From IMG/VR virus record IMGVR_UViG_3300048848_000056, positions 1-26,046 of that record: DNA of 26,046 nucleotides; one strand, 5' to 3'. The first letter of the stretch is position 1, and the number at the start of each line of letters is the position of its first letter. The stretch comes from a virus. Lineage: Duplodnaviria; Caudoviricetes. Below, piece after piece: positions 831 through 20,000 of this stretch. The position numbers were made by a program, and so were the translations under genes. The notes beneath the pieces were generated by a model. The model did no database searches. It saw only the letters and a list, made by a program, of their open reading frames with translations, and had not been told where the DNA came from.

Positions 831-921
<91 letters not shown>

Positions 922-923
922 GT

Positions 924-1075
924 ACTGTTCCAGACTAGTCCGAACCGTACCGAAAACCCTTTACAATCCGCAGTTTTCGGCCATTTCAGGACGGTAACTG
1001 TTCCAGACTGTTCCGACGTATGCCAGCCAAGCCCGGGGGCATTGTTGGGGCACCGGAACCCGGACGTGGGGGCAT
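924..1075 (+). repeat. att-arm region: directionality-factor-like direct repeats and integrase arm-type sites
   Basis: ACTGTTCCAGACT exact at 924-936 and 997-1009, each in a run of 10-bp units. GGGGGCAT at 1035-1042 and 1068-1075, TGGGGCAC at 1046-1053. All lie between the tRNA and int. Confidence 0.6.
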
Positions 1076-1078
1076 CGA

Positions 1079-2350
1079 GTGCTAACCGATCAGCAGTGCA
1101 AAGCGGCCAAGGCCGAGAGCAAGGCTGTGAAGCTATCCGATGCGCAGGGGCTCTACCTCTATGTGACGCCGTCTGGCTACAAGAGCTGGCGCCTCAAGTA
1201 TCGTTTCGGGGGCAAGGAGCGCAGGATCGTGTTCGGTCCATACCCGGACATCTCGCTTCGTCAGGCTCGGGAGTTGAGGGACGATGCTCGCCGCGAGTTG
1301 CGAGACGGCCGAGATCCGGGCGACGAGCACAAGCGGAAGGCGGCCAGGCGCACGATCGGCGTGGACGAGGCGCGCACCTTCAAGTCAGTCGCGTTGCGCT
1401 GGCTCGAGCTACAGAAACCGCAGTGGAAGCCAATCCACGCGAACGACGTCCTTCGCAGCCTCGAGCGGGAAGTCTTTCCCGTATTAGGCTCGGTGCCGAT
1501 CGACGAGGTGAGGGCGCCCAAGATCCGAGAGATGCTGCAGGCGGTGCAGGCGCAGGGAGCCATCGAAACTGCGCACAGGATCAGGCAGCGGATCTCGGCA
1601 GTGTTCCGATATGCGATCGCGTCGGACCTAGCCGAGACGGATCCCGCAGCCGCGATCGGCGATGCGCTTCAGGCCGTCGTGAAGGGCAAGCAGCCCGCCT
1701 TGCTGAAGCTGAAAGACTGCCAGTCGTTCCTGCGCGCCTTCGAGGCCGAGCCGGGCCATCCAACGACGAAGCTTGCATCTCGCCTTCTGGCCCTAACGGC
1801 TGCTCGCCCCGGCGTCGTACAGATGGCCGAAGTGGACGAGTTCGAGGATCTGGACGGTCCGGAGCCAATCTGGCGCATTCCGGCCGCGAAGATGAAGCTT
1901 TCCCGAGCCAAGTCAGAACGCGAGGAATTCGAGTTCATCATTCCGCTATCGGCTCAGGCGGTAGAGACGGTGAAAGCTGCCGCGGAGTTCGCCGGCCGGC
2001 GCGAGCATCTGTTTCCTTCGGCTCGACACTCGCATCGGCCGATCACCGAGAATGCGTTGAACACGGCTTACCGACGGTTGCCGGCTTTCGCAGGCCGGCA
2101 TGTGCCACACGGATGGCGATCGAGCTTCTCGACGATAATGAACGAGCGGGCGATCCACCAAGAGCGACCCGGCGATCGCGCGATCATCGATCTCATGCTT
2201 GCTCACCAGCCCGACGGCGTCGAAGCATCTTACAATCGAGCGGCATACATGCCGCGCCGGCGCGAGCTGGCGCAGGAGTGGGCGGACATGCTCATGCAAG
2301 GCTTCCAGCCGGCGCTCGCCCTGATCGAGATCAAGCGCCGCGTGCGCTGA
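1079..2350 (+). CDS. Tyrosine integrase 1, P4-like family with N-terminal arm-binding domain
   Basis: N-terminal K.SD..GLYL.V.PSG.KSWRLKYRF.GKE...G.YP.ISL..AR; catalytic residues ALTAAR, HGWR, LAH, ASYNR all present. Confidence 0.95.
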   Translation: MLTDQQCKAAKAESKAVKLSDAQGLYLYVTPSGYKSWRLKYRFGGKERRIVFGPYPDISLRQARELRDDARRELRDGRDPGDEHKRKAARRTIGVDEARTFKSVALRWLELQKPQWKPIHANDVLRSLEREVFPVLGSVPIDEVRAPKIREMLQAVQAQGAIETAHRIRQRISAVFRYAIASDLAETDPAAAIGDALQAVVKGKQPALLKLKDCQSFLRAFEAEPGHPTTKLASRLLALTAARPGVVQMAEVDEFEDLDGPEPIWRIPAAKMKLSRAKSEREEFEFIIPLSAQAVETVKAAAEFAGRREHLFPSARHSHRPITENALNTAYRRLPAFAGRHVPHGWRSSFSTIMNERAIHQERPGDRAIIDLMLAHQPDGVEASYNRAAYMPRRRELAQEWADMLMQGFQPALALIEIKRRVR

Positions 2351-2366
2351 CAATCGGTGGCCGCTC

Positions 2367-3194
2367 ATGACGGCTGCCACTCCAAGGGAAGCAACCCCGT
2401 TCGGTCTCCTCGCCGCCAAGATCACGCAGTCGAAGCTCGGCCGCAAGACGCGCGCCCTACTCGAGCGTGGCGACAGTCCGCGAAGCGGCGAGAAGGTTTG
2501 GCGCAACTCGTACACGGAAGGAACGATCGAGGATCGGGTGTGGAAGCCGATTCACGATGGCAGCACTCGCGGCGGGAAACGATGGACCGGCGCCCTGATG
2601 AAAGCGGCCCGGGATCTTGAGTATCGCACTCGTTTGGCGCGGCGAGAGAAGGAACCGGGAGCGCGCAACGGCGCTCTGGGCGAGGTCGGCCTTGAGGTCC
2701 TCGGCTTCATGTTCGAGACCGTCGATTTCATATCCGGTCGACTGGATCCGGCCATCGCCACGATCGCGGAGGCGATCGGGCGGTCGTACTCGGCTGTACA
2801 CGAGGCGCTATGTCGTCTGCGCACTCAGGGCTTCCTGCACTGGATGCGACGATCGCGCCCCATTGTGGATGCACAGCCGGATGGCCCTCAAGTCGAACAG
2901 ATCACGAACGCTTACGCGCTCCTCGTACCGGTCGAGATGAAGGGCTGGCTCGCGCTACTCCTCCGCAAGTGGAAGGCGCGTACGCCGCACTGCGAGGAGG
3001 ATCGCCGCAAGCACGAGCGAGAAGCCTACGACGCCATGCTGAGCACCCTTACGGTGGTGGAGCGGCACAACACGACGTGGAATGGCGATCGCCTGCTCGG
3101 CGAGACCCTGAAGAGCCTCGCTGCTTCGCTCGACAAGCGCGATGTCCTGGACCGCGAATCCGGCAGACATGGAGAAACCGGGGGATCATACTGA
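2367..3194 (+). CDS. HTH-domain plasmid-type replication initiator-like protein
   Basis: GALG.V.LEVL....VDF.SGRLDPAIATIAEAIGRSYSAVHEAL.RL...GFL.W.RR...Q..NAY resembles the winged-helix RepA-like proteins of small alphaproteobacterial plasmids; starts 16 bp after the int1 stop. Confidence 0.65.
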   Translation: MTAATPREATPFGLLAAKITQSKLGRKTRALLERGDSPRSGEKVWRNSYTEGTIEDRVWKPIHDGSTRGGKRWTGALMKAARDLEYRTRLARREKEPGARNGALGEVGLEVLGFMFETVDFISGRLDPAIATIAEAIGRSYSAVHEALCRLRTQGFLHWMRRSRPIVDAQPDGPQVEQITNAYALLVPVEMKGWLALLLRKWKARTPHCEEDRRKHEREAYDAMLSTLTVVERHNTTWNGDRLLGETLKSLAASLDKRDVLDRESGRHGETGGSY

Positions 3195-3345
3195 TCCTAT
3201 GACGACAGAAGACGCCTAGGGCGTCTTCAGGCACCAACTTCGCCTTCGGCTCAGCCCCGGTCGTACCGACCCCAGGCCGCAAGCACTGCTTTTTCAGCAA
3301 CGACGCTCCAGTCGGAGATGGCGCGCGCGGGCGGCTGCGCCGCCC
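3183..3345. repeat. Inverted-repeat cluster downstream of the rep-like gene (terminator and/or origin candidate)
   Basis: GGATCA-tac-TGATCC (3183-3197), GAAGACGCC-tag-GGCGTCTTC (3208-3228) and GGGCGGC-tgc-GCCGCCC (3329-3345), between convergent genes. Confidence 0.5.
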
Positions 3346-3418
3346 AGGGGCTGCCGAGGGGCCGGGAGCAAGGTCAGTGCCATTCTGCAGCCTTGCCCCG
3401 GCACCTTCGGTCGCGCTG

Positions 3419-4234
3419 TCAATCGAGCGCGAAGTTACTGATGAGCAGCTCGTTCACCCGCTTGCCGCTCCCGGCGGCCGCGGTGCCCATTGTCCAGGTC
3501 GTCTCGATGTCTTGGATCGAGAACGCGGCGAAGATCTCCCGCACCGCCGGCGCGTCGTTGATCGATAGGATGAACTTGCCGCGCGCGCCGGCGAGCACCG
3601 CGGCGAGCCGTTCGAAGTCCGCGCGGCCGAATGTATCCTTGCCGTAATCATCCTCGCAGCCGAAATAAGGCGGATCGAGGTAGAACAGCATGCCCGGCCG
3701 ATCGTACCGCGCGATGAATGTGTCGTAATGCAGCTGCTCGATCGTCACGCCGACAAGACGCTCGTGAATCTCGGCGAGCATCGGCTCGAGCTTCGAGACG
3801 TTGAAGCGCGCGCCCTGGCGGGCATCCACGCCAAAGGTACGGCCGATGACCTTGCCGCCAAAGGCGAGCTTCTGCAGATAGAGGAAACGCGCAGCGCGCT
3901 GGAGATCTGTGAGGCGAGCAGGGTCCATACCGCAGAGACGATCGAACTCGGCGCGGCTCGCTACGCGCCAGCGCAGCATGTCGATGAAGTAGGGATAGTG
4001 CTCCTGGAGCACGCGGAAGAAAGTGGCGACGTCGCCGGACAAGTCGTTGATGACTTCGACCTTTGGCCGCGCCGATCGGCGTAGGAAGATGCCGCCCATT
4101 CCGACAAACGGCTCGGCGTAGCCATCATGAGGTACGCGCTCGATGAGCGCGCAAATGCGACGGGCAAGGTTCCGCTTGCCGCCCTGATAACCAGCGGCGG
4201 GCGAGATGGGGCGAACGGTTTCAATTGACTCCAT
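3419..4234 (-). CDS. D12-class N6-adenine DNA methyltransferase (phage Dam-like, orphan)
   Basis: Y.GGK, EPFVGMGG (SAM motif), EVIND and FYLDPPY (catalytic). Start set at ATG 4234 (MESIETVRP) because the upstream in-frame extension to 4387 runs through a hairpin-rich region. Confidence 0.92.
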   Translation of the reverse strand: MESIETVRPISPAAGYQGGKRNLARRICALIERVPHDGYAEPFVGMGGIFLRRSARPKVEVINDLSGDVATFFRVLQEHYPYFIDMLRWRVASRAEFDRLCGMDPARLTDLQRAARFLYLQKLAFGGKVIGRTFGVDARQGARFNVSKLEPMLAEIHERLVGVTIEQLHYDTFIARYDRPGMLFYLDPPYFGCEDDYGKDTFGRADFERLAAVLAGARGKFILSINDAPAVREIFAAFSIQDIETTWTMGTAAAGSGKRVNELLISNFALD

Positions 4235-4256
4235 GAGAAGGGAGATGCTCCAAGAT

Positions 4257-4373
4257 CCCCGCCCGTATGCGCGGGTGCGGGGCGGCCAGTCGGCCAGCTG
4301 TGTCGTGGCGAGCTCAATCCTCGTCGGTGACCGGGTTACAGCCCGGAAACCCCCGCTCCCGACGCACGTCGGG
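4257..4373 (+). ncRNA. Candidate structured cloverleaf/tRNA-like RNA between the methyltransferase start and the integrase 2 stop
   Basis: Closing stem GCGGGG(4277-82)/CCCCGC(4351-56) encloses three hairpins (GGCC/GGCC, CGAG/CTCG, CCGGG/CCCGG), with flanking hairpins at 4262-4275 and 4358-4373. Strand is inferred from G-U extensions only. Confidence 0.45.
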
Positions 4374-4390
4374 GCAGAGAAACACATGAT

Positions 4391-5590
4391 TTAATGTGCG
4401 AGCAGTTCGCCCCAGTGGTCGAACAGCATGCGCCGGCGATCGAGCAGCTCGGCGCGGTTGTACGCGGCCTCGACCTTGTCCTTGGGAGTGTGGGCGAGCG
4501 CGCGATCGATGTCCGCTTGAGCGTCGGGCCCGAGCGTCTCGTTCAAGATCGTCGAGAAGCTCGAGCGCCAGCCATGCGGCACGTGGCGCCCAGCGAAGCC
4601 GGCGCGATCATACAGCGCGCCGATCGCGCCCTCGCCGATGGGCCGAAGACGATCACGCCCCGGGAAGACGAGGGCTTCACCCCCGATCAACATGCGGTCA
4701 ACCCCGTGTTCGGCCGCCGCGTCGCTCAGGACTGCGACGGCCGCGGCCGAGAGCGGCACCAAGTGTGAGAAGCGCGCGTCTTGCTTCTTCGCCTTCTTCA
4801 GCTTCATGCGCGCCGCCGGCACGCGCCATAGCGGTGCTTCGCCGTCCAGGTCCTCGATCTCGCTCCAGCGCATGCCCCGAACCGCCTCAAGGCGCACGGC
4901 GGTCAGCGCCAGGAAGCGCGACGCCAATCTGATCGACGCGCGGGCGGGCTCGCGATCGGCGCGCTCAAGCAGCTCGCGGCATTGCTCGAGCTTGACCAGG
5001 GCGGGCTGTTGGCGCGGCGCGCGCACTGAGATCATCGCTCGACCGAGGTGCTGCGCGGGATCACCGTTGACCAAGCCTTCGGCAATGCCGAAGCCGAAGA
5101 TGGCGGAGAGGCGCTGCCGCAATCGACGTGCGGTCTCGGCGCAACCCCGCGCTTCGACATCGCGCAAGACCTGCAGCAGCTCGCGCGGCTCGATCTCGCC
5201 GGCGGACTTCGCGCCGATCGCCGGGAACACGTCGCGCTCCAGGCTGGCCAGGACGTCGCAGGCGTGGGTCGGGGACCAGGTGCTCTCGGCATGCCGGTAC
5301 CAAGCGCGCGCGAGCTGCTCGAATGTCTCGAGTACTTCCCGCACGGCCGACGGATCCACGCCGGCGCGCAGCTGGGCCTTCGCGTTCTCGCGCCGGCTGC
5401 GCGCCTCGCCCAGGGAGATCTCGGGGAAGCGGCCGAGCACGAGCAGCTTCTCTTTGCCCTGCCATCGGTACTTCAGCCGCCACGACTTGCAGCCAGCGGG
5501 CGTCACGAAAAGGTAGAGGCCGCCGGCGTCGCTCATCTTATAGGCGCGCGTCTGCGCGGCCGCGGCTTTCACCGCACCGTTGGTCAGCAT
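4391..5590 (-). CDS. Tyrosine integrase 2, P4-like family, paralogous to integrase 1
   Basis: Start ATG 5590 (MLTNGAVKAA) behind AGAGGA RBS. Arm domain SDAGGLYL.V.PAG.KSWRLKYR; catalytic ALTAVR, HGWR, LAH, AAYNR intact. Confidence 0.93.
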   Translation of the reverse strand: MLTNGAVKAAAAQTRAYKMSDAGGLYLFVTPAGCKSWRLKYRWQGKEKLLVLGRFPEISLGEARSRRENAKAQLRAGVDPSAVREVLETFEQLARAWYRHAESTWSPTHACDVLASLERDVFPAIGAKSAGEIEPRELLQVLRDVEARGCAETARRLRQRLSAIFGFGIAEGLVNGDPAQHLGRAMISVRAPRQQPALVKLEQCRELLERADREPARASIRLASRFLALTAVRLEAVRGMRWSEIEDLDGEAPLWRVPAARMKLKKAKKQDARFSHLVPLSAAAVAVLSDAAAEHGVDRMLIGGEALVFPGRDRLRPIGEGAIGALYDRAGFAGRHVPHGWRSSFSTILNETLGPDAQADIDRALAHTPKDKVEAAYNRAELLDRRRMLFDHWGELLAH

Positions 5591-5601
5591 ATGTTCCTCT
5601 G

Positions 5602-5769
5602 ATGTCGAAAGAGCTCGAGCTGCCGCCGTGTCCACTATGCAGAAGCCGTGTGGTGTTTCGCTATCGCTCGAGTGAGTTCAGCCAGGTTGGCGTCACGTGT
5701 ATGGACTGCAGCTGCCGAGCGCCGCTCACGTCCTGGATGAAGCGACCGCCGGTTGATCGCGGCGGATGA
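5602..5769 (+). CDS. Possible 55-aa zinc-ribbon protein (Lar restriction-alleviation-like)
   Basis: MSKELELPPCPLC...VGVTCMDCSCRAP has a CxxC...CxxC pair in a Lar-like arrangement. No RBS is visible and it starts only 11 bp from the divergent int2 start. Confidence 0.3.
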   Translation: MSKELELPPCPLCRSRVVFRYRSSEFSQVGVTCMDCSCRAPLTSWMKRPPVDRGG

Positions 5770-5963: not shown

Positions 5964-6677
5964 CTAGTAAAGCTCTCGAAACGGCACGGTCGCCGTTGCG
6001 GAGCACACGCCATAGAGCGCCGCAGCCGTGGGCCAGTTGTCGGCGGCATAGGCCGTAGCGGCAAGTGGCCAGCCTGTTGCGAGCGTCACTCCCGGTCCGC
6101 CAAACGCGCATTGCACGGCCGTGGTGACGGTGACATCAATCCTTTGGCGCCCGGGCCGTGCTGCAGCGACCAACGTTGCCGTAGTGCCCACGGTGGCCTG
6201 GCCGGTAACGATGTTGGCGCCGCCCTTGTTGATGACGTAAGCGCCGCCGGTGTCGCCGCGACAGCGGTCCCAAGTCGACCCATTAAACAGGTAGCAACGA
6301 CTGATCGACTGAAGGCCCATGAAGGAGCTACCGCCTGAGAGGCCATCAGAACTGGACGACACGATCGCGGCGGTGCTGGCGCCGCTGGTGATTGCGAAGC
6401 CTGTGTTGCCGATCAGGCCTCCCGCCTGCAGCGGATTGCCGAGCGCGGCGATGATGGTGTCCTGCTTGGCCGAAGTCGCGGCGCCGGCCGGGACAGTGCC
6501 GCTGTCGGTCGCGCATGGCGCCCATGTCGTGCCATTGTCGCTCGAGCAGAATGTCGCTTGGCCCGGCAGGAACCCTGCCGGCGCCTTCGCTGGCGTCCCG
6601 GGTGCAATCTGCGCCAGAGCGACGCAAGGCAGGAGGGCGAGCGCCAGCGCACCCGCGGTGCGAGATAGAAGCTTCAT
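5964..6677 (-). CDS. Hypothetical exported protein with signal peptide, 237 aa
   Basis: MKLLSRTAGALALALLPCVALA|Q Sec-type signal; GAAAGGA RBS; Gly/Ala/Thr-rich beta-type body with several Cys. Confidence 0.75.
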   Translation of the reverse strand: MKLLSRTAGALALALLPCVALAQIAPGTPAKAPAGFLPGQATFCSSDNGTTWAPCATDSGTVPAGAATSAKQDTIIAALGNPLQAGGLIGNTGFAITSGASTAAIVSSSSDGLSGGSSFMGLQSISRCYLFNGSTWDRCRGDTGGAYVINKGGANIVTGQATVGTTATLVAAARPGRQRIDVTVTTAVQCAFGGPGVTLATGWPLAATAYAADNWPTAAALYGVCSATATVPFRELY

Positions 6678-8462: not shown

Positions 8463-10391
8463 TCACGGCGTAATGTCCTCGATCATGAAGTCGTCGAGAT
8501 CCATGTTGCCGGGATCGTTGCCGCGATCGGCGAGGCCGACGAAGCAGTCGACAGCCGGCGTGATCGTGGTCACGAGGGTTCCCGGCGTCGTCAGGATGTT
8601 CGCCCCGTTGACTTTGCCGCCGCTCAGCAGCGTGACCGCTGGGTCGATGACGAAGCTGGTCGTGCCGCTGCCGGGTGTGCCGTCCGCCGGCGCGGTGCGC
8701 GTGACGGTGAGGCGATAGGTCCGGCCAGCCTTCAGCTGCTTGGTTTCGATCCCCGTGTTGATCTCCTCCTGACCCTTGATACGTGCAGTCCAGACTGTCT
8801 TGGCGTTCTGGCGCACGCGAACCTTTCCGCCGCCCAGCGACACCTGGGTGGGCTGGCGAAGATCGAATCCGTTACCAGTCGCGACGATCGGGTCGGCGAC
8901 GTAGATGCTCGGAGCGGGGCCTGGCTGCGGTGGCGCCGCGTTGGTGACCGTGGCAACCACCTCGGCGAAGCGACATGGCAGCGGCACGGCCTGATTGTCG
9001 CGCAGGATCTTGGTGTAGTCGGTGATGTCGGGCATCGAACCACGTGCGTAAGCGCCTGTCTCAACCACACCCTGGATCTGGTTCTGCGACAGCGTCCACT
9101 GCACGTGTGTGGCGTCGATCCGGGTACCCGCGCCCATCACCTGCGGCACGCCGTCGATCAGATAAACGAAGCCCTGGATACCTGCAGCGGGCGTGATGTC
9201 GGTTCCGCCATCGTGCGTGATCGTCGCGGTGATCGTCGCGCCGTCGCGAGCGACAGCCGTGATGCGAGGCCCGTCGACGCCACCGGCGACGACCGCGCCG
9301 CGCGTCTTGGCGATCTTGCGATACATGCGCGGGGCGAGGGCCTTGTAACCAGTCGCCAGCGTGTGCGGACCGCCATCGTCAACCTGGTCGAACATCTCAG
9401 GCATGAGAGTGATGAACGTCGGGTTCTCGGCGGCGAGCTGGACGATTTTGCGGCGTAGGTAGGTGTACCCGACCTGCCGCGCGTTCGAGCCAACGCCGTC
9501 GCCGCGCCGGTTCATTGGCACCATGAAGATCCGAGGGTTGCCGCCGGCCGCGCCGCGCACGCTGGCGAAGACGCGCAGCCATGCCGCACCCCAGGCGTCG
9601 GACGCCGCCTGCGATGCGCTCACCGCGCCGCTGTCACCTTCGCCCTGGTTGAAGTAAAAGGCGGTGACCGTTGCCCCGCTGGCCTTCGCGGCCGCGACCG
9701 CAGCAAGCGCCTCCTGCCAGCGCGGACCCATGGTGTCGTCGTCGTTGATCCACCAGTTGCTGTCGGTCGCTCCACGCTGGAACACCGAACTGCCGTCCGC
9801 CGCAGCGTCGAGGAACACCCATTCGTCGCCGAGGAAGCTTGCAAGGCCCGTCTGCATTTCCGCTTGAGCGTTGATCTGCATGCGTTCAGCGTTGGATTGC
9901 CCAAGCGTGAGCATCGCCATCACGTTTACCGTTGCGCCGCCACCGTCGGCCGCCACCTTGACGATCGGCGTGTTGATCTCGATCGTCGGCGCAACGATGA
10001 CCATCGCATCCGCGTTTCCGATGGTCTCAGGGAAGCCGAACGCCCGTGCTTGAAAGAAGCGCTTGGCTCCATCGGGGTAGGTCACGCGGAACGCGTAGAG
10101 GGCTGCGTTCGCCGGGTCGGCGGCGGCGCGAAGCAGGGCCTGGCCCGCGTCCCCGCTATCAACAGCGATGTTCGGCTGCAACGAACCGTAGTCGGTTGAG
10201 CCCTTATGCTTCTGCTTGGGGCCGGCAAGAGGCTGGAAGTCGGTCTTGGCTGTGTTGGCACCTATTGCACCGATGCTCTCGACGCCGCCGATGTTGACAT
10301 ACGCCAGGCTCGAATAGCCGTAGGTCGACTGCATCGAGGGATAGCCGGCCGAGATGTCGATCGTCGTACCTGCGGCGGTGGTGGAGCTCAT
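8463..10391 (-). CDS. Tail-tube-protein paralog fused to SGNH (CE6/SASA-like) esterase and C-terminal beta domains, 642 aa
   Basis: aa 1-148 align without gaps to the 19548-20000 protein. Then LGQSN, DGSS, FNQGEGD and DDGGPH esterase blocks, a Pro-rich linker and a CBM-like end (GRTYRLTVT...LDDFMIEDIT). Confidence 0.85.
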   Translation of the reverse strand: MSSTTAAGTTIDISAGYPSMQSTYGYSSLAYVNIGGVESIGAIGANTAKTDFQPLAGPKQKHKGSTDYGSLQPNIAVDSGDAGQALLRAAADPANAALYAFRVTYPDGAKRFFQARAFGFPETIGNADAMVIVAPTIEINTPIVKVAADGGGATVNVMAMLTLGQSNAERMQINAQAEMQTGLASFLGDEWVFLDAAADGSSVFQRGATDSNWWINDDDTMGPRWQEALAAVAAAKASGATVTAFYFNQGEGDSGAVSASQAASDAWGAAWLRVFASVRGAAGGNPRIFMVPMNRRGDGVGSNARQVGYTYLRRKIVQLAAENPTFITLMPEMFDQVDDGGPHTLATGYKALAPRMYRKIAKTRGAVVAGGVDGPRITAVARDGATITATITHDGGTDITPAAGIQGFVYLIDGVPQVMGAGTRIDATHVQWTLSQNQIQGVVETGAYARGSMPDITDYTKILRDNQAVPLPCRFAEVVATVTNAAPPQPGPAPSIYVADPIVATGNGFDLRQPTQVSLGGGKVRVRQNAKTVWTARIKGQEEINTGIETKQLKAGRTYRLTVTRTAPADGTPGSGTTSFVIDPAVTLLSGGKVNGANILTTPGTLVTTITPAVDCFVGLADRGNDPGNMDLDDFMIEDITP

Positions 10392-10497
10392 GTCAGCTTG
10401 CCTTTTCGTGGGAGGAAGTACGGCGGACAGCGTCTCTCGCTCCGGGCTCTTACCCAGAGGCGCATTTGCTCTGTCGAAGGGTGTTGCGGCTAGTTGC

Positions 10498-10755
10498 TCA
10501 GGTTGAGGCGCTTGGAGGCGTGGTGCCGAGAAAGACGATCTGGCTGCCTGGGATGTCGATGCCGACTTCTTCCCCCTGCGCCGTGCGCTTGAGAGTCATG
10601 CTCGGCAGATCCAGTTCGAAAAGAGAGAGATCATACCCTCCGAGCATCGCGCCGACCTGGCCGCTGGCGAGGTGGGCTTGCAGCTCCTCCGGCTCGGTGA
10701 TCTTGACCGAAGCCACCAGGTTGCCGGTCGTCTTATTGTAAAGCGTTGCGAGCAC
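10498..10755 (-). CDS. Hypothetical 85-aa tail-associated protein
   Basis: GTG start 5 bp after the tail-tip gene stop with GAGG upstream; co-oriented; no recognisable motif. Confidence 0.55.
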   Translation of the reverse strand: MLATLYNKTTGNLVASVKITEPEELQAHLASGQVGAMLGGYDLSLFELDLPSMTLKRTAQGEEVGIDIPGSQIVFLGTTPPSAST

Positions 10756-10760
10756 CGAGC

Positions 10761-13097
10761 TTACCTCTTTCTCAAGTCCGCTGTCAGCAGCGCGTTGTAC
10801 ATGATGATGTCCGAGGCTTGGCCGCCGGTGTAGAAGCCCTTGGCCGTCTGCATGAAGTACGTGTTGACGACATTCGCGATCGGCGCCTCATCAATGACGC
10901 GCAGCGCGCCTTGTCCTCCCAGTTCTTGCGCCGGCACAAAGACCTTGCCGTCATGCCGGACGATGCGCACCGCAGCGGTCCATCCGATTGAGCCTTCCGA
11001 CGTTCCGCTCGAGTAGAAGGCATCGAGCAACGCAATACCGCCCGTCGCGGGAACGAAGGATGCGACCTGCACCCTGGCTCCGCCCATGTAGAGATCGGTC
11101 CAGTTCGTTGTCTCGCTGGTCGAGGAAGGCGTAGACGAGAAGAAGTAGTTGATCGACGATGCAGCGTTCGGGGCGAGTTTGCCCGTCGTGACGGACTCGC
11201 TCACCAGCAGATTGCCGATGATCTCAACGTCCCCGGTCAGTCGGATGCCCGAGATCACCACCCCGTCGGCGGTGTAGGCGAAGATGGCGACCTCAGCGCG
11301 CCCATCTCCCGCGATCGCAGTTTGCGTCAGGCTCGCGCCGGCGACGCGGCCATAGGCATCAGCGGCAACCGTTTCGACCGTGCTGGTACGCGCCATGAGC
11401 CCGCCAGGTCCACCGACCGCCGCCTCAAGGTTCGTGGCACGTTGTGCCACCGACTGATTGTCGGCAGCAGCCGCTTGGGCAACCTCCTCGATGCGGGCAA
11501 CCGCAGTCGGCACTACGCCACCCGGGGTGAACTTTGCCTCGACCGTCTCAACCCGTTCCGCGACAGCGTTGGTGTCAGAGGCCGCAACCCTCCGCGCTTC
11601 CTGGATAGCTGCCGACGCCTCGCCGACCGCTACATCGAGACGATCCAGTTCACTCTCAACTGTCGCACCGTCCGGGATCTCGCCGATTGTGACCAGCAGG
11701 CGGTCGGCAAGTTCTCTTGCGGCCGCCAGGCCGTCGACCACAGCGTTACCAGTCGAGTTGCCGACCGGGCTGTTGCCAGGGGCACCGTTCGTCGCGTTGT
11801 CTTCAGGCTTCGTACCATCCGGATCGGCGATGTCGGGCCAGTTCACGATTGCGCCAAGCGGCTCAACCTTGCCGGCCGTGCTCAGCCCCTCGATCAACAG
11901 CGATAGCTTGCTGACAGCACTGCCCGCCTCGATCGAGAAGTCCTTGAAGAAGCCGTAGATCGTTAGGCTGTCGAGATCGCTGTCGCCTATCCACAACGAT
12001 GGCAGCGCGCGAACAGCAGCAATGCGCCCAGCGACTATATCGATGGCGTCGGTCGCGATAAGCGCTTTGGCACTCATGCGTTTGGCATAGGCGCGCTGGA
12101 CGATCGTCACTTCGCCGAAGTCGTCGACTTCCTTCCGGCTGTAATCGGTCAACGCGGCGGTTGGCGATGCCTCGGTGATCCCCAATCCGACCACTGAGCC
12201 GATCAGCATGGTGCCGACCGAGACCGTGCCGGAGCCGACGATCGTCACCGTGACCGAACCGGCCACGCCCGGCAAATCCAGGAAGGTCACCACGCCACCG
12301 GGGCTCGGTGCCGCCGTGCGGGCATATCCTGGCGCTTCGACGTGTACGGTCGTGCCAACGGTGACATCGAGGAGCGCAAGCGCGGTGGCAGGGCCAACGT
12401 CGACCGTTACCTCTACCAGGCCGTTTGCAGCCGTTATCGATCCCAGCGCCTGGTCGAACATGGCCCAGCGGTTCGTTGGCCCGATGTCGGTCCACTTGCC
12501 CGATATGCCGATCGGATCGTTGCCGAGGTTGGCGTCGGCCGCGCTCTCGTAGATCCGGTGCGACGCTGCCTTGATGACACGCGCGCCGAGTGGGTAAGCG
12601 ATATCGCCGGCCCATTCGGAGTAGTCGTTCTCGTCGACACTACTGGCGAGCAACGCGGCCGGCGTTACAACGATCGGCTGCAGGAGGCGCAGCGTCGAAT
12701 CGGATCCATCCGGCGCCGGGTCGCCACCAGGATCAACGAATGGCTCGTTTCCGGCCAGACCTTCTATGGTGAGGGTGCAATAGCTCACCGGCGGCGTTGC
12801 CAGGTCTAGCGTGAAATCCTTGTAGAAGCCCCGGAAGCTTAGCCAGCTGAACCGTTCGTCGGCGATCCACATCGCCGCCGTCGCACGAAGGTCTGCTAGA
12901 CGGCGCTGTACCGCGTCAGCCTGCTCGAACGGTACCTCCATCCGCACCGACATGCGCCGAGAGAAGTTACGCGGCACGACTGTTGTCACGCCGAAGTCGT
13001 CGGTCACTCGGCGGCTATAGTCGACGATACTGATCGTCGGCGTCTCTTCCGCCGCGCCGAGATCAATGACCTCGCCGCCATCCAACTGGACCTTCAT
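10761..13097 (-). CDS. Tail tip/baseplate protein with internally duplicated domain, coiled coil and C-terminal receptor-binding-like region, 778 aa
   Basis: Directly follows the tape measure (4-bp overlap); two copies of a DYSR...DDFG...GF(Y/F)KDF...IEGL domain; coiled coil and gpJ-C-terminus-like G.LLV..SVT.GKL segment. Confidence 0.75.
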   Translation of the reverse strand: MKVQLDGGEVIDLGAAEETPTISIVDYSRRVTDDFGVTTVVPRNFSRRMSVRMEVPFEQADAVQRRLADLRATAAMWIADERFSWLSFRGFYKDFTLDLATPPVSYCTLTIEGLAGNEPFVDPGGDPAPDGSDSTLRLLQPIVVTPAALLASSVDENDYSEWAGDIAYPLGARVIKAASHRIYESAADANLGNDPIGISGKWTDIGPTNRWAMFDQALGSITAANGLVEVTVDVGPATALALLDVTVGTTVHVEAPGYARTAAPSPGGVVTFLDLPGVAGSVTVTIVGSGTVSVGTMLIGSVVGLGITEASPTAALTDYSRKEVDDFGEVTIVQRAYAKRMSAKALIATDAIDIVAGRIAAVRALPSLWIGDSDLDSLTIYGFFKDFSIEAGSAVSKLSLLIEGLSTAGKVEPLGAIVNWPDIADPDGTKPEDNATNGAPGNSPVGNSTGNAVVDGLAAARELADRLLVTIGEIPDGATVESELDRLDVAVGEASAAIQEARRVAASDTNAVAERVETVEAKFTPGGVVPTAVARIEEVAQAAAADNQSVAQRATNLEAAVGGPGGLMARTSTVETVAADAYGRVAGASLTQTAIAGDGRAEVAIFAYTADGVVISGIRLTGDVEIIGNLLVSESVTTGKLAPNAASSINYFFSSTPSSTSETTNWTDLYMGGARVQVASFVPATGGIALLDAFYSSGTSEGSIGWTAAVRIVRHDGKVFVPAQELGGQGALRVIDEAPIANVVNTYFMQTAKGFYTGGQASDIIMYNALLTADLRKR

Positions 13098-16000
13098 GCG
13101 GCTGCGCCGAACACCGTAATGGCATTCCCGCCGCTTGCCTCGGTCACATCATCAAGCTTGTCGGCCGTGCGGGTGTTCGCGCTGGCGTTCACCGCGTGAC
13201 CCGCGTTGTTTTCGGTCCGGGCCTGAGCAAGTTCGGCGCGCAGCGCCTTCAGCTCCGTGACTACGTCGTCGTAGGGCGTGGCGGGCGAACCGACCGCCTG
13301 CACCGCTGTAGCAGCCGTGTCGAGCGCGGCCGTCGGCGAGGTGGTGTTCGCCCCGGTGATCGCAGCGATCAGCGCGTTGGTTCCTTCCAGACTCGCCGCG
13401 ATCTGCGCCTTGACGCGATCGAGTTCCTGCTTGCTGGTCGCCGTATCGCCGGCGACGGTGAGCAGCGCCTGACTAAGACCAACGAGCTTACCAGCTGCGT
13501 CCTGATCGCCAGCGCGCGCCGCCGCCGTCGCTGCATTGAACTGTCCCATGAGCAGCGCGAAGCTGCCAGTGCCGGTACCATCGGTGATCCCGCGAATACG
13601 GTTCACTTCGTCCATGATGCTAACACCCACGGACTTCCAGGCGTTACGCAGCTGCTCCGCGGCGGCGGCGGCTTCCTTGGCGTCCTGAAGTGCCCAGATC
13701 TGCTCCTGCAGCGCGCGGTTGCTGGGGTCGATTTTCGCCAGGTCGAGCGCACGGATTGCGGCGGTGTCACCCTGAAGCTCAAGCAATTGGCGCTGCAGGT
13801 CCTGCTGCTCGGACAGGATGTCGGCCGCGCTCTTCGCGCCCGTCATCGCCGACTGCAGGTCCGCGAACGCCGGCGCCAGCTGCAGCAGCGTGGAATAGGT
13901 CGCCTGCCCGGCGGCGGTGGTGAGATCTTGTGCTTCGACAAGCGAGCGGAACGCGGCAAGCGAACCGGGCATTGCCATCCCGAGGTCGGCGAACACCTGC
14001 GTGAACTGGCCAGTGCGCGCGGCAACCTGCTCTTCCTTGGAGTAGTACGCCTCGAAGTACGCACCAGCAGCGCTGGTGAAGTCGCTGACGCTCTGGAACT
14101 GATCGGCCAGCGCCATCTTCACATCGATGCTCATCGACGCCGCCGACGAGCCCAGCAGGCCCATGGTGGCGGTCACGCTCTCGACGGTAGACGATACGCG
14201 CACCAGCGTCTCGAACAGACCTTCGCCCACCTTCTGGAACTTCTCGATGCCGGGGAACGCTGCCTTGGCCATGTTGTCGGCTGCGGCGCCGAACACGGCG
14301 TTGAGCTTCTCCTCGATCTCCTCGCCGGTCAGATCCTTCAAGTCGATCTTGCCGATGTCGATGACGAAGCCGGCCAGTTTGTTCTTGATCGCGTCAGTCG
14401 ACTCTCCGAGCGGCTTGGCGGCCGAGACGATCGCATCGTTGAAGCCGCGCAGGATGAGCGTGAACTGATTTTCCAAGCCCGGATCGGCATCGGTGTACTG
14501 AGTCTTGTACTTGGTCGAGGTGGTCAGGCCGAAGAACTTCTTCTTCTTCTCCACGTCCGAGTAGTAATCGGCATCGAACCCGCCTGACAGCACGCTGCCC
14601 AAGGTCTGGCTGCCGCCATACAGGCCGCCGCCGATGATCTTGGTCTTGGTACCGAACAGGGAGCTTACGACACCGCCGATGCCCTTGAGAATGCCGCCGA
14701 GGATGGGGATCTTGCTGGCGAACGCGCCGATTGCCGCGCCAATAGGGCCGCCAAGGGCGAAACCGACCATGGTGGTGTACGCCTTGCCCATGCCGCCGCT
14801 CAGCGACGAGTTGAAACCCTCGTTCACGCCGGCCGATGCGTCGACGTTGCCGGCGCGCAGCACTAGCCGAGTGAAGCCGCCGATTTGGCTGTCGATCGAC
14901 TGCAGCGAAGCAGCCATCTGGCGCGAGTAGGTGAGCATAACGGTGTCCACCTCCTTCAGCGCGTCGATCGAGCGCTTAATGCTCTCGGACTTCGCGGTGC
15001 TGTCACCCAGCACGGTACCGGTGCCGTCGTTCGCCTTCGTCAGGTTGTTCTTGCCGCCTCCGCCGAACGATCCCGCGATCGCAACGCCGATCGAGGCGAG
15101 CGCGCCGATCGTCGCTGCGCCGGCCGCGATGTTGAGCGGGAACGGCAACGACGAGATCGCCGAGACGACCGCTTCTACGGCCTTGACCGCCGTTCGCGCG
15201 CCGCTCTTCGCAATCGACGAGGCGGTCTCGGCCGCATCCTGTGCCATGGCGCGAACCGACAGGGCGAACTCGACGGTCCGGAAGGCCTTCTCCGCACCGG
15301 CGAGTACCTGGTACCCGGTCGAGCCATCCTTGAAGAACCCTTTGGCCGCAGCCGACATGTCGCCGAAGGCTTGGATCTGCGCGCCCGACGAGCGCAGCGC
15401 GAATCTGGCGTTCTCCTGAGCCAGCAGCTTCTCATTCTTGCCGGCACGCCTGATCTGCTCATCGTGCTCAACCGCGGCACGCTCGCGGCTTGCATGATAG
15501 TCGGCATAGACTGACGCGAGATCGCCGATCGCCCGGCCTGCATCGCCGAAGGCATCGGCCATGCCCCGCCCTGCGAACTGAACCTTGCCGGCGATGATGT
15601 CCCACTTGTCGGCGGTGAGCGTTAGAGCATCGTTGTACGCCTGGGTGGCATCGTTCACCTCCAGCTGAGCCTTCGCCCTGTCGACGAAGGAGGCGACCAG
15701 TTCTTTGGCCTTTTCCGGGCTCATGCCTGGGTTCTGGTCGACCACGGCCATGGCCTCGAACTGTGCGATGGTGACGGCTCGAGCTTCGTTGCTCTTCCCG
15801 ATCAACTGCAGTTCCATGCCGAGGCGCGCGAGATCATCGTCAGCGCTGCGGATCGCTGCTATCGCCTGTGCGTTCGCGAGCTGCTTCGCCTCATTCACGA
15901 CGATCTCGCGTACCTTCTTGGCGCGATCGGATGTAAGCGGGCCGAGCCGCTCTTCGGTCTGCCAGATCGCCTGCAGGACAGAGGCCTCTGTGCCCAGACC

Positions 16001-18547
16001 TTCAGCGGTGAGTTGCGCGATCTGACCACGACGTTGCGAGGCCTCCTCCATTTCCTGGAAGGGGCGGAGGAGCGATTGCTCGATCACAGTCTTGGCTGCT
16101 TGCGCGTCCGCGATGGTCTTTTCGAACCCGGGCGGCTTGAGCTTCTGCAGGTCTGCAATGGTGGCGTCGAGCTCACGGGTTTTGCGGGCGGCCAGGTCCA
16201 GCAACCGCGGCTGCTCGTTGAACTGCTCGGTCACGCGCGCAACCGACTCCACCGAACGATCGCCAAACTGCTGAAGCGCTTCCCGCGCCTTGTTTGCCTG
16301 CTCGGCCACATAGGTCGCATCGATCGGGAACTGGCCCTTGCTCGGGTCGACCTTCTTGCCGTTCACCAGCACCTCGTAATGCAAATGCACGCCGGTGGCG
16401 GTGCCCGTCTTGCCGGCATAGCCGATCACGTCACCCTTATTGACTGCCTGACCATCGCGCACGTTGAAGCCGCTCAGGTGGCTATAGGTGGACTTGGTGC
16501 TGCCGCCGTGCGCGATTTCGATGCGGTTGCCATAGCCTTTGACCGCGTCGGCAAACTTCACGATGCCGTCGGCTGCAGCAAGTATGGGTTCGCCCAGGCG
16601 CGCAGCATAGTCGATCGCCAGGTGGTTGCTTGATGCGCCGGCGGTGGGACGCTCACGGTGGCCGAAGCCGCTCGTGATGTGCGCGCCGGGTATGGGACTG
16701 CCGAACTGAGTAAGGTCTCTACCAGATCCGACCGCCTTTGCAGCACGCTCGGTGTCCTGATAGGCCCTCAATGCAGCTGCGCGGTTACGTTCAATCGCGG
16801 CAAGCTGCCCGGTCAGCGCAGTGGTTACTGTTCCTCCTGCAGCGATCTGTGCGCGAGCGGCGGCCTTTGCTGCACCTACCTGATCGTCATAACTCTTTTT
16901 GATCTGCTCCAACGGATCGGCCATTCGCTTGGCTTCTTCTTCCGCGAGACCGATCCGTGTCTCCTGGACCCGCTTCTGCGCGGCGATAATCGCCTTTTCG
17001 TTCTCGGAGAGTTGGCCGTTGATCTTGTCGAGCTGCGCCTGCAGACGCATAACAGCACCAGCAGCCAAGTCGCCCTGCTGTCCGCCGCTCCGAGCCCGGA
17101 TCAGCTGGGCTTCGATACGCTCCTTCGTAGCTTGTAGGTCATCTTTGATGCCAGTGCGGATATCCATCGCACGTTGCAGATTGATCTTCGCGGTGATGTT
17201 GGCCTGCTCAGCCGCGCTCCGCTCCGCTTCGATCGCACTTTTGGTCGCCTCGGTGCCCTCACGGATAGCTTGATTCACGCCTTCCTGCGAGATCTTGAAC
17301 CGATCCTTGGCTCTCGCGAGAGCTTCCGTTTCAATGGCATCCTTCTTGAGCTTGTCGGTCGAGTCCTTCAGCGCATTGCTGCTGTCGTACAGCTTGTACG
17401 CAAACGACGCAGCAAGGCCGATTGCCACGGTGGCCGCGATGCCCCAGGGCCCGGCAAGGAAGGTGGCGAACTTGCCTGCGCTCGCCTGGTTGGCGTTCAT
17501 GCCTGCGGCAATGTCTGGCAGCTGAATCGCCAAGGCCTGGATCACGCTGGTACCAGCCATGACCTGTTGACCCACCTGGCTCATCTGCAACGAGAACTGA
17601 CGCGCATTACCGGAGGCGCTTACCAATGGACGCGAAAGGTCACTGACTGCGGCGCCGGTACCAGCGACAGCTTGCGCATGTTGTTGCAGTGCGTCGCGAG
17701 CATGCTTCTGCGCGGCCGCGTACTCGTTTGTCGTAATGAGACCGGCACGATACAGATCGTCGGCTTGGTCGAGTGCCTGGTTGAAGCGCTGCTGTGCCGC
17801 GAACATCGGATCGAGTTGCGCACGCAGGGTGCTGGCCTGAGCCGCGTACGTGGCCTGTTGTTTCGCGGCCTCCTGCGCAGCCAGCGCGGCTTTCTGGAAG
17901 GCGCGCTCCTCCTGCTGCACCATCTCGGCGAGAGCGGAGAACGTGGCGCCCCCATCAGTCGCTCGGGTGCGGCCGGCGCCCGTCTTTTGAGCTATGGTCG
18001 CCTGGAGGCGAGCTTGTTCGGCAAGCATTGCGTTGGCGCGTGTCACTGCCGCAGCTTCAGCGTCTGCGACCCGCTGAGCGGCCATAACACGCGCTTCAGC
18101 AGCGGCTTCAGCTGCGGCGGCAGCTTTGGCCTGGATCGCGATCTCTTCGGTCACAAGCCGGTTCGCGAGTTCGGACAGACCCTGGCGTTCGGCAGCGGTG
18201 GCCGCCGTCATCACCTTCATCTCTCGCATCTCGGCCGTCGTTTTCCCGAACGCGGCATTCTGGCGGCCAAGCTGACGCACCAGGGCCTCGCCGGCTTTCT
18301 CGGCTTGCGCCGTCGCCCGAACAGTTGAGGCCATCTCTCGTGTGGCCGCATTGCCGAACGTCTTCATCTCGGCCGAGGCGCTGCCGAGCTTCAGGGTGCC
18401 CCTGCTAGCCGCCTCCAGCTTCTGAAACTGGCGTACTGCGTCGGCCGCGGTAGCACCGATGAGATCGTCCAGAGAGCGCAACTGGCCGAAGCTGTCATGA
18501 AAGTCGATGGCGAAGCCAACGCCAAGCATTGCTCCTTCCTCATCCAT
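13094..18547 (-). CDS. Tail tape measure protein with embedded M23 peptidase domain, 1817 aa
   Basis: Longest gene, Ala-rich helical, follows G/GT; lambda-type QMSQV.QQ..AG...ALAIQLP motif; HLAID and HLH zinc motifs at about 16340-16690. Confidence 0.92.
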   Translation of the reverse strand: MDEEGAMLGVGFAIDFHDSFGQLRSLDDLIGATAADAVRQFQKLEAASRGTLKLGSASAEMKTFGNAATREMASTVRATAQAEKAGEALVRQLGRQNAAFGKTTAEMREMKVMTAATAAERQGLSELANRLVTEEIAIQAKAAAAAEAAAEARVMAAQRVADAEAAAVTRANAMLAEQARLQATIAQKTGAGRTRATDGGATFSALAEMVQQEERAFQKAALAAQEAAKQQATYAAQASTLRAQLDPMFAAQQRFNQALDQADDLYRAGLITTNEYAAAQKHARDALQQHAQAVAGTGAAVSDLSRPLVSASGNARQFSLQMSQVGQQVMAGTSVIQALAIQLPDIAAGMNANQASAGKFATFLAGPWGIAATVAIGLAASFAYKLYDSSNALKDSTDKLKKDAIETEALARAKDRFKISQEGVNQAIREGTEATKSAIEAERSAAEQANITAKINLQRAMDIRTGIKDDLQATKERIEAQLIRARSGGQQGDLAAGAVMRLQAQLDKINGQLSENEKAIIAAQKRVQETRIGLAEEEAKRMADPLEQIKKSYDDQVGAAKAAARAQIAAGGTVTTALTGQLAAIERNRAAALRAYQDTERAAKAVGSGRDLTQFGSPIPGAHITSGFGHRERPTAGASSNHLAIDYAARLGEPILAAADGIVKFADAVKGYGNRIEIAHGGSTKSTYSHLSGFNVRDGQAVNKGDVIGYAGKTGTATGVHLHYEVLVNGKKVDPSKGQFPIDATYVAEQANKAREALQQFGDRSVESVARVTEQFNEQPRLLDLAARKTRELDATIADLQKLKPPGFEKTIADAQAAKTVIEQSLLRPFQEMEEASQRRGQIAQLTAEGLGTEASVLQAIWQTEERLGPLTSDRAKKVREIVVNEAKQLANAQAIAAIRSADDDLARLGMELQLIGKSNEARAVTIAQFEAMAVVDQNPGMSPEKAKELVASFVDRAKAQLEVNDATQAYNDALTLTADKWDIIAGKVQFAGRGMADAFGDAGRAIGDLASVYADYHASRERAAVEHDEQIRRAGKNEKLLAQENARFALRSSGAQIQAFGDMSAAAKGFFKDGSTGYQVLAGAEKAFRTVEFALSVRAMAQDAAETASSIAKSGARTAVKAVEAVVSAISSLPFPLNIAAGAATIGALASIGVAIAGSFGGGGKNNLTKANDGTGTVLGDSTAKSESIKRSIDALKEVDTVMLTYSRQMAASLQSIDSQIGGFTRLVLRAGNVDASAGVNEGFNSSLSGGMGKAYTTMVGFALGGPIGAAIGAFASKIPILGGILKGIGGVVSSLFGTKTKIIGGGLYGGSQTLGSVLSGGFDADYYSDVEKKKKFFGLTTSTKYKTQYTDADPGLENQFTLILRGFNDAIVSAAKPLGESTDAIKNKLAGFVIDIGKIDLKDLTGEEIEEKLNAVFGAAADNMAKAAFPGIEKFQKVGEGLFETLVRVSSTVESVTATMGLLGSSAASMSIDVKMALADQFQSVSDFTSAAGAYFEAYYSKEEQVAARTGQFTQVFADLGMAMPGSLAAFRSLVEAQDLTTAAGQATYSTLLQLAPAFADLQSAMTGAKSAADILSEQQDLQRQLLELQGDTAAIRALDLAKIDPSNRALQEQIWALQDAKEAAAAAEQLRNAWKSVGVSIMDEVNRIRGITDGTGTGSFALLMGQFNAATAAARAGDQDAAGKLVGLSQALLTVAGDTATSKQELDRVKAQIAASLEGTNALIAAITGANTTSPTAALDTAATAVQAVGSPATPYDDVVTELKALRAELAQARTENNAGHAVNASANTRTADKLDDVTEASGGNAITVFGAAA

Positions 18548-19547: not shown

Positions 19548-20000
19548 TCAGGCGGGTGCCGCGACCTTCACGATGATCGTGTTGATCTCGATCGTGGGGT
19601 TGGCCATGATGATGGCGTCGGCATTTCCGACGTTCTCCGGGTAACCGAACACGCGACCCTGGAAGTAGCGCTTCTCGCCGTTCGGATAGGTCACACCGAA
19701 CGAATACTGCGCATTGTTGGTCGGACCGGACGCGACGCGAACCAGGTTCTGACCCGCGTCATTGTCATCGTGGGCGATGGCAGGCTGTAGCGAGCCGTAG
19801 TCCGTCGAACCCTTATGCTTCTGCTTCGGTCCCTTGAGGGGCTGGAAGTCAGTCTTGGCGGTGTTCGCGCCGATCGCGCCGATGGACTCGACGCCACCGA
19901 TCTCGGTGAGCACAAGCGCGCCATAGCCCGCGGCATCTTGAGTTGCGGGGGCGGCGGCCGAAATGCCGATCGTCGTGCCCGCGGCAGTGCTGGATCCCAT
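19548..20000 (-). CDS. Major tail tube protein, 150 aa
   Basis: Position after the terminator gene and before G/GT; K.KGS.D.G.....A.D..DAGQ and F.VTYP.G..RYF motifs of siphophage tube proteins; AGGAG RBS. Confidence 0.88.
   Translation of the reverse strand: MGSSTAAGTTIGISAAAPATQDAAGYGALVLTEIGGVESIGAIGANTAKTDFQPLKGPKQKHKGSTDYGSLQPAIAHDDNDAGQNLVRVASGPTNNAQYSFGVTYPNGEKRYFQGRVFGYPENVGNADAIIMANPTIEINTIIVKVAAPA

Follow-up and report, generated by a model that had tools for sequence, protein, structure and literature searches.

The tube-esterase locus at the late end of a prophage

The analyzed stretch of DNA (26,046 nt; hereafter, the window) represents the late end of a prophage and adjoins a tRNA-Ser gene. 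The gene for the major tail-tube protein occupies its canonical place, between the tail completion gene and the chaperone and tape-measure genes. In addition, 9.2 kb downstream, a separate ORF with its own start encodes a second copy of the tube domain (70% DNA identity) that continues into a large C-terminal extension (Table 1). A sequence-only reading of the window had aligned this domain, without gaps, to the whole tube protein with 103 of 148 residues identical, and had noted a 39/40 identical stretch encoded by synonymously diverged codons. Both observations were reproduced: the alignment scores E 1e-65, and 20 of the 40 codons in the conserved stretch differ. The identity of the partner gene product as the tube protein, on which that reading depended, is borne out by gene order and by the PHROG major tail protein family phrog_158, which is matched by both copies (E ~1e-14; 5e-14 in the family test). 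In Pfam (E<=0.01), PF16461 and PF08813 are matched by 18 and 16 of the 45 aligned members, respectively, and the window copy falls under the cut-off.

Table 1. Features of the window, and tube copies with their cargos in related prophages (positions refer to the window unless a locus is named).
Feature	Position	Strand	Basis
Second tail-tube gene fused to cargo, 642 aa	8463..10391	-	ORF call, ATG start
Tube domain, aa 1-148, 70% identical to major tail protein	9948..10391	-	alignment, PHROG match
aa 34-73, 39/40 identical to major tube	10173..10292	-	codon comparison
Short Gly-rich linker, aa 149-156	9924..9947	-	sequence; first cargo strand of the model begins at aa 157
Predicted SGNH esterase domain, ~aa 157-365	9297..9923	-	structure model, motifs
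Beta-sandwich, ~aa 374-485	8937..9272	-	model; aligned jointly with the SGNH core to CE20 and sialate esterases and Pan3 tailspike
Pro-rich linker, aa 487-494	8910..8933	-	PPQPGPAP at aa 487
C-terminal beta domain, CBM4/galactose-binding-like (lead only)	8466..8906	-	structural comparison
Major tail-tube protein, 150 aa, cognate partner of tube copy	19548..20000	-	PHROG, gene order
Tail tip protein, directly upstream	10761..13097	-	phrog_6278; weak tail fiber match
ORF of 85 aa between tip gene and tube copy	10498..10755	-	no family found
Tape measure protein, M23 peptidase at aa 641-735	13094..18547	-	
Gene of 237 aa after endolysin	5964..6677	-	signal-peptide-like start; no family found
Likely second small element	831..5635		
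tRNA-Ser	831..920		
Integrase	1079..2350	+	
Related integrase	4391..5635	-	
L039, copy with fused GDSL-like cargo			motif only, no Pfam match
L066, copy with fused GDSL cargo			
L068, copy with fused Ig-like repeats and FAD-dependent oxidoreductase	L068:1054-4551		PF12831, E 1e-40
L070, copy with fused Ig-like repeats and FAD-dependent oxidoreductase	L070:8917-12648		PF12831, E 1e-40
L022, L034, L037, L042, L072, short-tailed copy, next gene GDSL/SGNH			
L064/L065, short-tailed copy, next gene GH30			
L078, short-tailed copy, next gene M14 peptidase			
L052, short-tailed copy, next large gene without family			
L041, short-tailed copy, next gene is major tube gene			

The fusion is genuine. A collapsed repeat or assembly artefact is ruled out, because the two tube copies share only 311 of 444 nucleotides, with the longest exact run being 18 nt, and because a contig from a different study spans positions 9255-11200, including the tube-esterase junction, without a break (84 differences, no gaps). 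Among the differences listed for this independent contig (40 of 122 difference rows), 17 of the 21 changed codons are synonymous. By alignment and model, the extension follows an intact tube domain, and the gene does not show the programmed frameshift from the major tube gene that is characteristic of gp17.1* and TpeX. A scan for promoters and terminators returned chance levels only.

Several neighboring features are of interest in their own right. Within the tip protein, aa 8-115 recur near aa 300-405 with 41% identity. A distal tail gene in its own right was not recognized, and our guess is that, through this internal duplication, a trimer may build a pseudo-hexameric ring of the distal-tail type. 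Next to the prophage end, the tRNA-Ser gene precedes a pair of related integrases encoded on opposite strands, together with a helix-turn-helix gene and a gene for a D12 adenine methyltransferase; this region is likely a second small element. The signal-peptide-like start of the gene after the endolysin has parallels in accessory genes of related prophages.

The tube copy is maintained by purifying selection

Across the full domain, 35 positions are shared by >=90% of 48 major tubes, and the window copy retains all but one of them (34). By simple Nei-Gojobori counts, with dS near saturation, the window pair yields a dS of 1.01 and a dN of 0.25 (dN/dS ~0.25), and the ratio is 0.10-0.41 in 10/10 cognate pairs and 0.10-0.20 between orthologous copies. 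Selection on the tube fold, as the sequence-only reading had suggested from codon usage, is thus upheld, and these sequence comparisons place the tube domain of the copy under purifying selection. Conservation is strongest at residues 34-73 (pS 0.66, pN 0.05), which, judging from the known fold, probably span the beta2-beta3 loop responsible for ring stacking; in solved tubes, this loop makes ring-to-ring contacts (PMC8718954). Residues 11-30 behave differently, with values of 0.57-0.58 between cognate pairs versus 0.62-0.66 between unrelated major tubes, the cognate pairs differing more.

Within the window, the ribosome-binding site of the copy is weaker than that of the major tube gene (-2.6 versus -6.9 kcal/mol). 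The same is clear in one further pair, but 5 of 10 copies have a site that is as strong or stronger, and a weak ribosome-binding site was therefore dropped as a general mark of a minor subunit.

The cargo is a predicted SASA-type esterase

The extension carries the motifs GQSN (aa 164), DGSS (aa 199), QGEGD (aa 249), and DDGGPH (aa 338), of which GQSN (aa 164-167) and QGEGD (aa 249-253, a QGExD block) are signatures of SASA/CE6 enzymes. The predicted catalytic residues are Ser166, the QGEGD block at 249-253, Asp339, and His343; Ser166, the QGE block, Asp339, and His343 are invariant in 9/9 close sequences, down to 39% identity, so that the Ser of SGNH block I and the His of block V are both conserved. 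The spacing between Asp339 and His343 departs from the usual DxxH.

A structure model of the cargo, built from 12 sequences (pLDDT 77.5), adopts an SGNH alpha/beta fold, with Z scores of 13-22 to many SGNH structures. The best match is the tailspike of cyanopodophage Pan3 (PDB 9vyh; Z 22.1, rmsd 3.3, 295 aligned residues), followed by the CE20 acetylesterase 7kmm (Z 21.5) and a sialate esterase (Z 20.5). Overall, CE20/SIAE structures (7kmm, 9ega, and 8f9o) reach Z 19.5-21.5, and the two CE6-type entries, 1zmb and 2apj, reach Z 16.6-17.1, the acetylxylan esterase 1zmb scoring 17.1. Both CE20/sialate and CE6 enzymes share the combination of an SGNH core and a beta-sandwich with the window model, at sequence identities to the cargo of 12-18%. 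The Atlas structure entry for the cargo names SASA. Pfam finds no cargo match in the window protein, SASA (PF03629) included, and PDB sequence searches with the protein and profiles gave no match; two distant homologues, P0013 and L092:6650-9421, score above the Pfam cut-off for SASA. Collectively, the cargo is well predicted as an SGNH esterase fold of SASA type, as had been proposed from the motifs. The accompanying CE6 assignment needs refinement, as CE20 and sialate esterases are better matches.

The same esterase module occurs, at 56-65% identity, behind unrelated N-termini, and, at 39% identity, in a 1190-aa phage protein. A closely related module is part of the 1183-1190 aa gene that lies directly 3' of a portal-like gene in three further phage contigs, L049-L051.

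The C-terminal domain, initially described as CBM-like, does resemble CBM4/galactose-binding modules (Atlas features 0.91; TM 0.61-0.67, under the naming bar), with weak matches to CBM4/CBM29 and no Pfam match; we regard this modeled resemblance as a lead only.

Second tube genes recur in related prophages and carry different cargos

Counting the window, genome searches and fetched regions revealed 14 distinct loci with a second tube gene in Sphingomonadaceae-type prophages, and a search for longer tube-bearing proteins added 6 fusions of 272-908 aa among 7 matches. Relatives with tube paralogs and different C-terminal cargos, anticipated in the sequence-only reading as a sign of a swappable module, are thus present. 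The database fusions carry GH16, Ig, and Calx-beta domains; P0002, P0003, and P0007 have nothing beyond Ig-like or Calx-beta extensions. Five of the 14 copies, including that of the window, are fused to a large cargo (Table 1). A FAD-dependent oxidoreductase is not what one would expect a virion protein to carry. The remaining 9 copies have a short tail at the C-terminus, in some cases preceded by an Ig-like domain, and in 8 of the 9 a large gene follows directly. In L070/L071, the tube copy has outlived the major tube gene, which is missing from this prophage remnant.

An SGNH protein is linked to the tube copy in 8/14 loci (6/14 by Pfam). By Pfam, 5 of the 20 regions from single-tube prophages contain SGNH genes as well, and per prophage the link to a second tube is not significant (6/14 versus 5/20, p 0.46). 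Counted per gene, SGNH proteins are enriched (6/14 versus 5/69, p 0.002) relative to a control of 69 ORFs of >=200 aa from the 20 single-tube regions, from which tape measure, tip, integrase, and lysis-like ORFs had been removed; control counts rely on Pfam, and an SGNH regular expression recovered just 2 of 7 positives. The SGNH gene following the copy of L022 begins with a signal-peptide-like stretch.

The second copy is optional, being found in 5 of 33 tube-matching genomes of the genus Sphingomonas and in 4 of 20 matching genomes sampled from the family (G006 is in both samples, and G284 is closely related to G124). Five near-complete virus records contain a single tube match each, with no second copy, and 20 control regions contain no extra match. 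No further second copies were detected among 401 order-level and 351 class-level genomes (9 and 3 matching genomes, one match each) or in INPHARED, where 32 records match the tube at 27-41% identity, each at a single place. Of the 11 genome loci with this tube, 10 are named as sphingomonads.

The position of the copy varies. It follows the tip gene in the window and L022, precedes the major tube gene in G284 and, twice, in G124, and otherwise lies further on, after the lysis genes where these were recognized. The argument that the window gene occupies the usual place of tail fibers, brought forward in the sequence-only reading, is accordingly weak.

The copies do not stem from one event: a single clade of all 20 copies is rejected (delta logL 352, AU p 2e-35; fast tree search, 2000 replicates). 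Among 48 major tubes, the own tube ranks first for the copy in 7 of 10 testable pairs and within the top 3 in all 10. Furthermore, the window copy groups with those of L022, L052, and P0004, whose C-termini differ, so the copy was already in place when its cargo was exchanged. At the level of sequence, duplication has been repeated independently and is accompanied by selection and cargo exchange. The closeness to the own tube fits a need for compatibility with that tube but does not prove it, and is also expected from recent duplication alone.

Short tails may dock the product of the next gene

The short-tail types of the copies go with N-terminus types of the next gene. An Ala-Leu-rich tail accompanies a short helical head that, among all fetched loci, is confined to those 4 genes; a Trp-Asp-Asp repeat tail accompanies a second (type-B) head; and in L037 a Thr-Ala-Asp repeat tail accompanies a T4 gp9/10 N-terminal domain (PF07880, at cut-off). 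A strict pairing of tails and heads is unsupported, since the motifs were derived from these same sequences and since, in the regions fetched, two single-tube prophages have the type-B head but lack a tail that would match it. Docking of the enzyme encoded by the next gene through the short tail peptide is therefore hypothetical. Docking of receptor-binding proteins by short peptides is established in branched receptor-binding proteins (PMC13352976), and in the head spike base and fiber of RcGTA a short peptide likewise links the cargo protein to its anchor on the virion (PMC7296036). In these systems the peptide is described at the N-terminus of the cargo, whereas in the second-tube relatives it ends the tube copy.

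Two further loci deserve mention. At L095:6519-8383, a small Ig-like protein with a type-B head and a short tail is followed by an SGNH protein with a gp10-like head, possibly a daisy chain of docking peptides. In L101:9267-11289, a single-tube prophage, a gene for an RcGTA-type head spike base (NF048002) precedes a 622-aa gene, so the head, too, may serve as an anchor for accessory proteins of this sort.

Probable display of the esterase on the tail tube and competing explanations

We consider it probable that the copy is a minor subunit co-assembled into the tail tube and that its outward-facing esterase strips acyl groups from the host surface polysaccharide. The prophage has duplicated its own tail-tube gene and joined it to the predicted O-acetylesterase; the copy would enter the tube through intact ring and stacking surfaces, and, with the C-terminus outside the tube, the enzyme would point outward and remove acyl groups during adsorption, as SGNH receptor-binding proteins do (PMC13123978). 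In relatives, the copy would either bear the cargo itself or dock the enzyme of the next gene through its terminal peptide. Tube incorporation, outward display, substrate, and role in adsorption are all inferred. Sphingans are acylated, and acylated sphingomonad exopolysaccharide may be the substrate. Much of the sequence-only reading, which had arrived at the same minor subunit, stands: a tube paralog under purifying selection, a SASA-type fold, and a swappable cargo; its positional argument is weak. Several observations count against display. Some cargos fit an attack on polysaccharide poorly (the oxidoreductase twice, the M14 peptidase once), the linker measures only ~8 residues, SGNH genes are common in single-tube prophages, and the weakness of the ribosome-binding site is not general; the lack of a Pfam SASA match, the non-DxxH spacing, and the signal-peptide-like start of the SGNH protein of L022 also weigh on this side.

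Instead of mixing into the tube, the copy could form a dedicated single ring at its end, either the first on the tip or the last under the terminator, making the esterase a tip or neck appendage of fixed number. Tube-fold rings are common at tail ends (PMC13455828), the window and L022 copies come after the tip gene and one small gene, and the divergence of residues 11-30 in cognate pairs could set the position. We nevertheless consider this unlikely, as the gene is optional, arises repeatedly, and occupies three different places. Dedicated tail end rings are also usually far diverged from the tube protein.

Two other explanations are distinctly improbable. In the first, the SGNH domain, though borne on the tail, mainly binds acylated sugar, with no need for the catalytic step. 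The atypical Asp-His spacing, the missing SASA match, and the fusions with Ig-like or Calx-beta extensions only would suit such a binder, which is at odds with the invariance of the catalytic residues. In the second, to which we give equally little credence, the product acts outside the virion, as self-polymerized free enzyme-bearing tubes released at lysis or inside the lysogen. Several copies do follow the lysis genes, some cargos are odd, and the L070/L071 copy persists without its major tube gene; yet the copies track their own major tube in 10/10 pairs, the putative stacking loop is nearly identical, and three copies belong to the tail operon, immediately ahead of the major tube gene. Finally, a neutral duplication or chance fusion in decay, which the optional presence might suggest, is highly improbable and already largely refuted by the selection data, namely the low dN/dS, the excess of synonymous changes in the independent sample, and recurrence in 14 loci.

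Relation to known tail decorations and implications

A minor tube subunit with an outward extension has precedents. In SPP1, extended subunits (gp17.1*) mix into the tube at 3:1 with C-terminal domains facing outward (PMC8718954), and TpeX of the lactococcal 936 group, which includes a host-binding CBM, binds host cells (PMC6669499). Both resemble the proposed copy in being sub-stoichiometric, but are described as frameshift products of the major tube gene with non-enzymatic Ig/FN3/CBM domains, whereas the window has a separate, diverged gene with a predicted enzyme. The tube proteins of lambda (gpV), T5 (pb6), and YSD1 likewise have an outward C-terminus with extra Ig domains, but encoded by a single tube gene and thus present on every subunit (PMC8718954). 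The sequence-only reading had likewise noted that Ig/FN3 extensions, as in gpV and gp17.1*, come from the same gene. Two separate tube genes per genome also occur in actinophage clusters EL, DJ, AM, AU, AW, BI, and CC (PMC11080557, PMC10652937), compared here by description rather than sequence; there, they are a cluster-wide feature, and the accessible parts of these papers mention no cargo. Conversely, the same enzyme class is found on virions in SGNH deacetylase receptor-binding proteins (G7C gp63.1 and those of Klebsiella prophages), which are active esterases (PMC13123978), and in the Pan3 tailspike, but the anchors are tail fibers or spikes, as opposed to a copy of a tube subunit.

A separate tube paralog with enzyme cargo was not found in the open literature searched, and the available portions of PMC5648845 and PMC13455828 describe no such copy. 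The enzyme-bearing tube paralog would represent a new form of tail-tube decoration, with the family-level pattern being the main addition. More tentatively, and with prospects slightly short of even, sphingomonad prophages might run a general tail-tube display, in which copies of the own tube serve as plug-in adaptors that mount interchangeable enzymes along the tail, by fusion or by docking peptide. The cargo range of the proposed system comprises esterases, glycosidases, a peptidase, and an oxidoreductase.

Polysaccharide-opening enzymes are normally sought in spikes and fibers, and a tube-paralog anchor, if true, would be a second way to arm the tail. Such tube-anchored enzymes would be missed when their genes are labeled "major tail protein" or "hypothetical". 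The cargo described here adds a predicted SASA/CE20-like esterase, the short-tailed variants suggest new peptide docking pairs, and the repeated origins of the copies make the compatibility of two subunits in a mixed tube testable.
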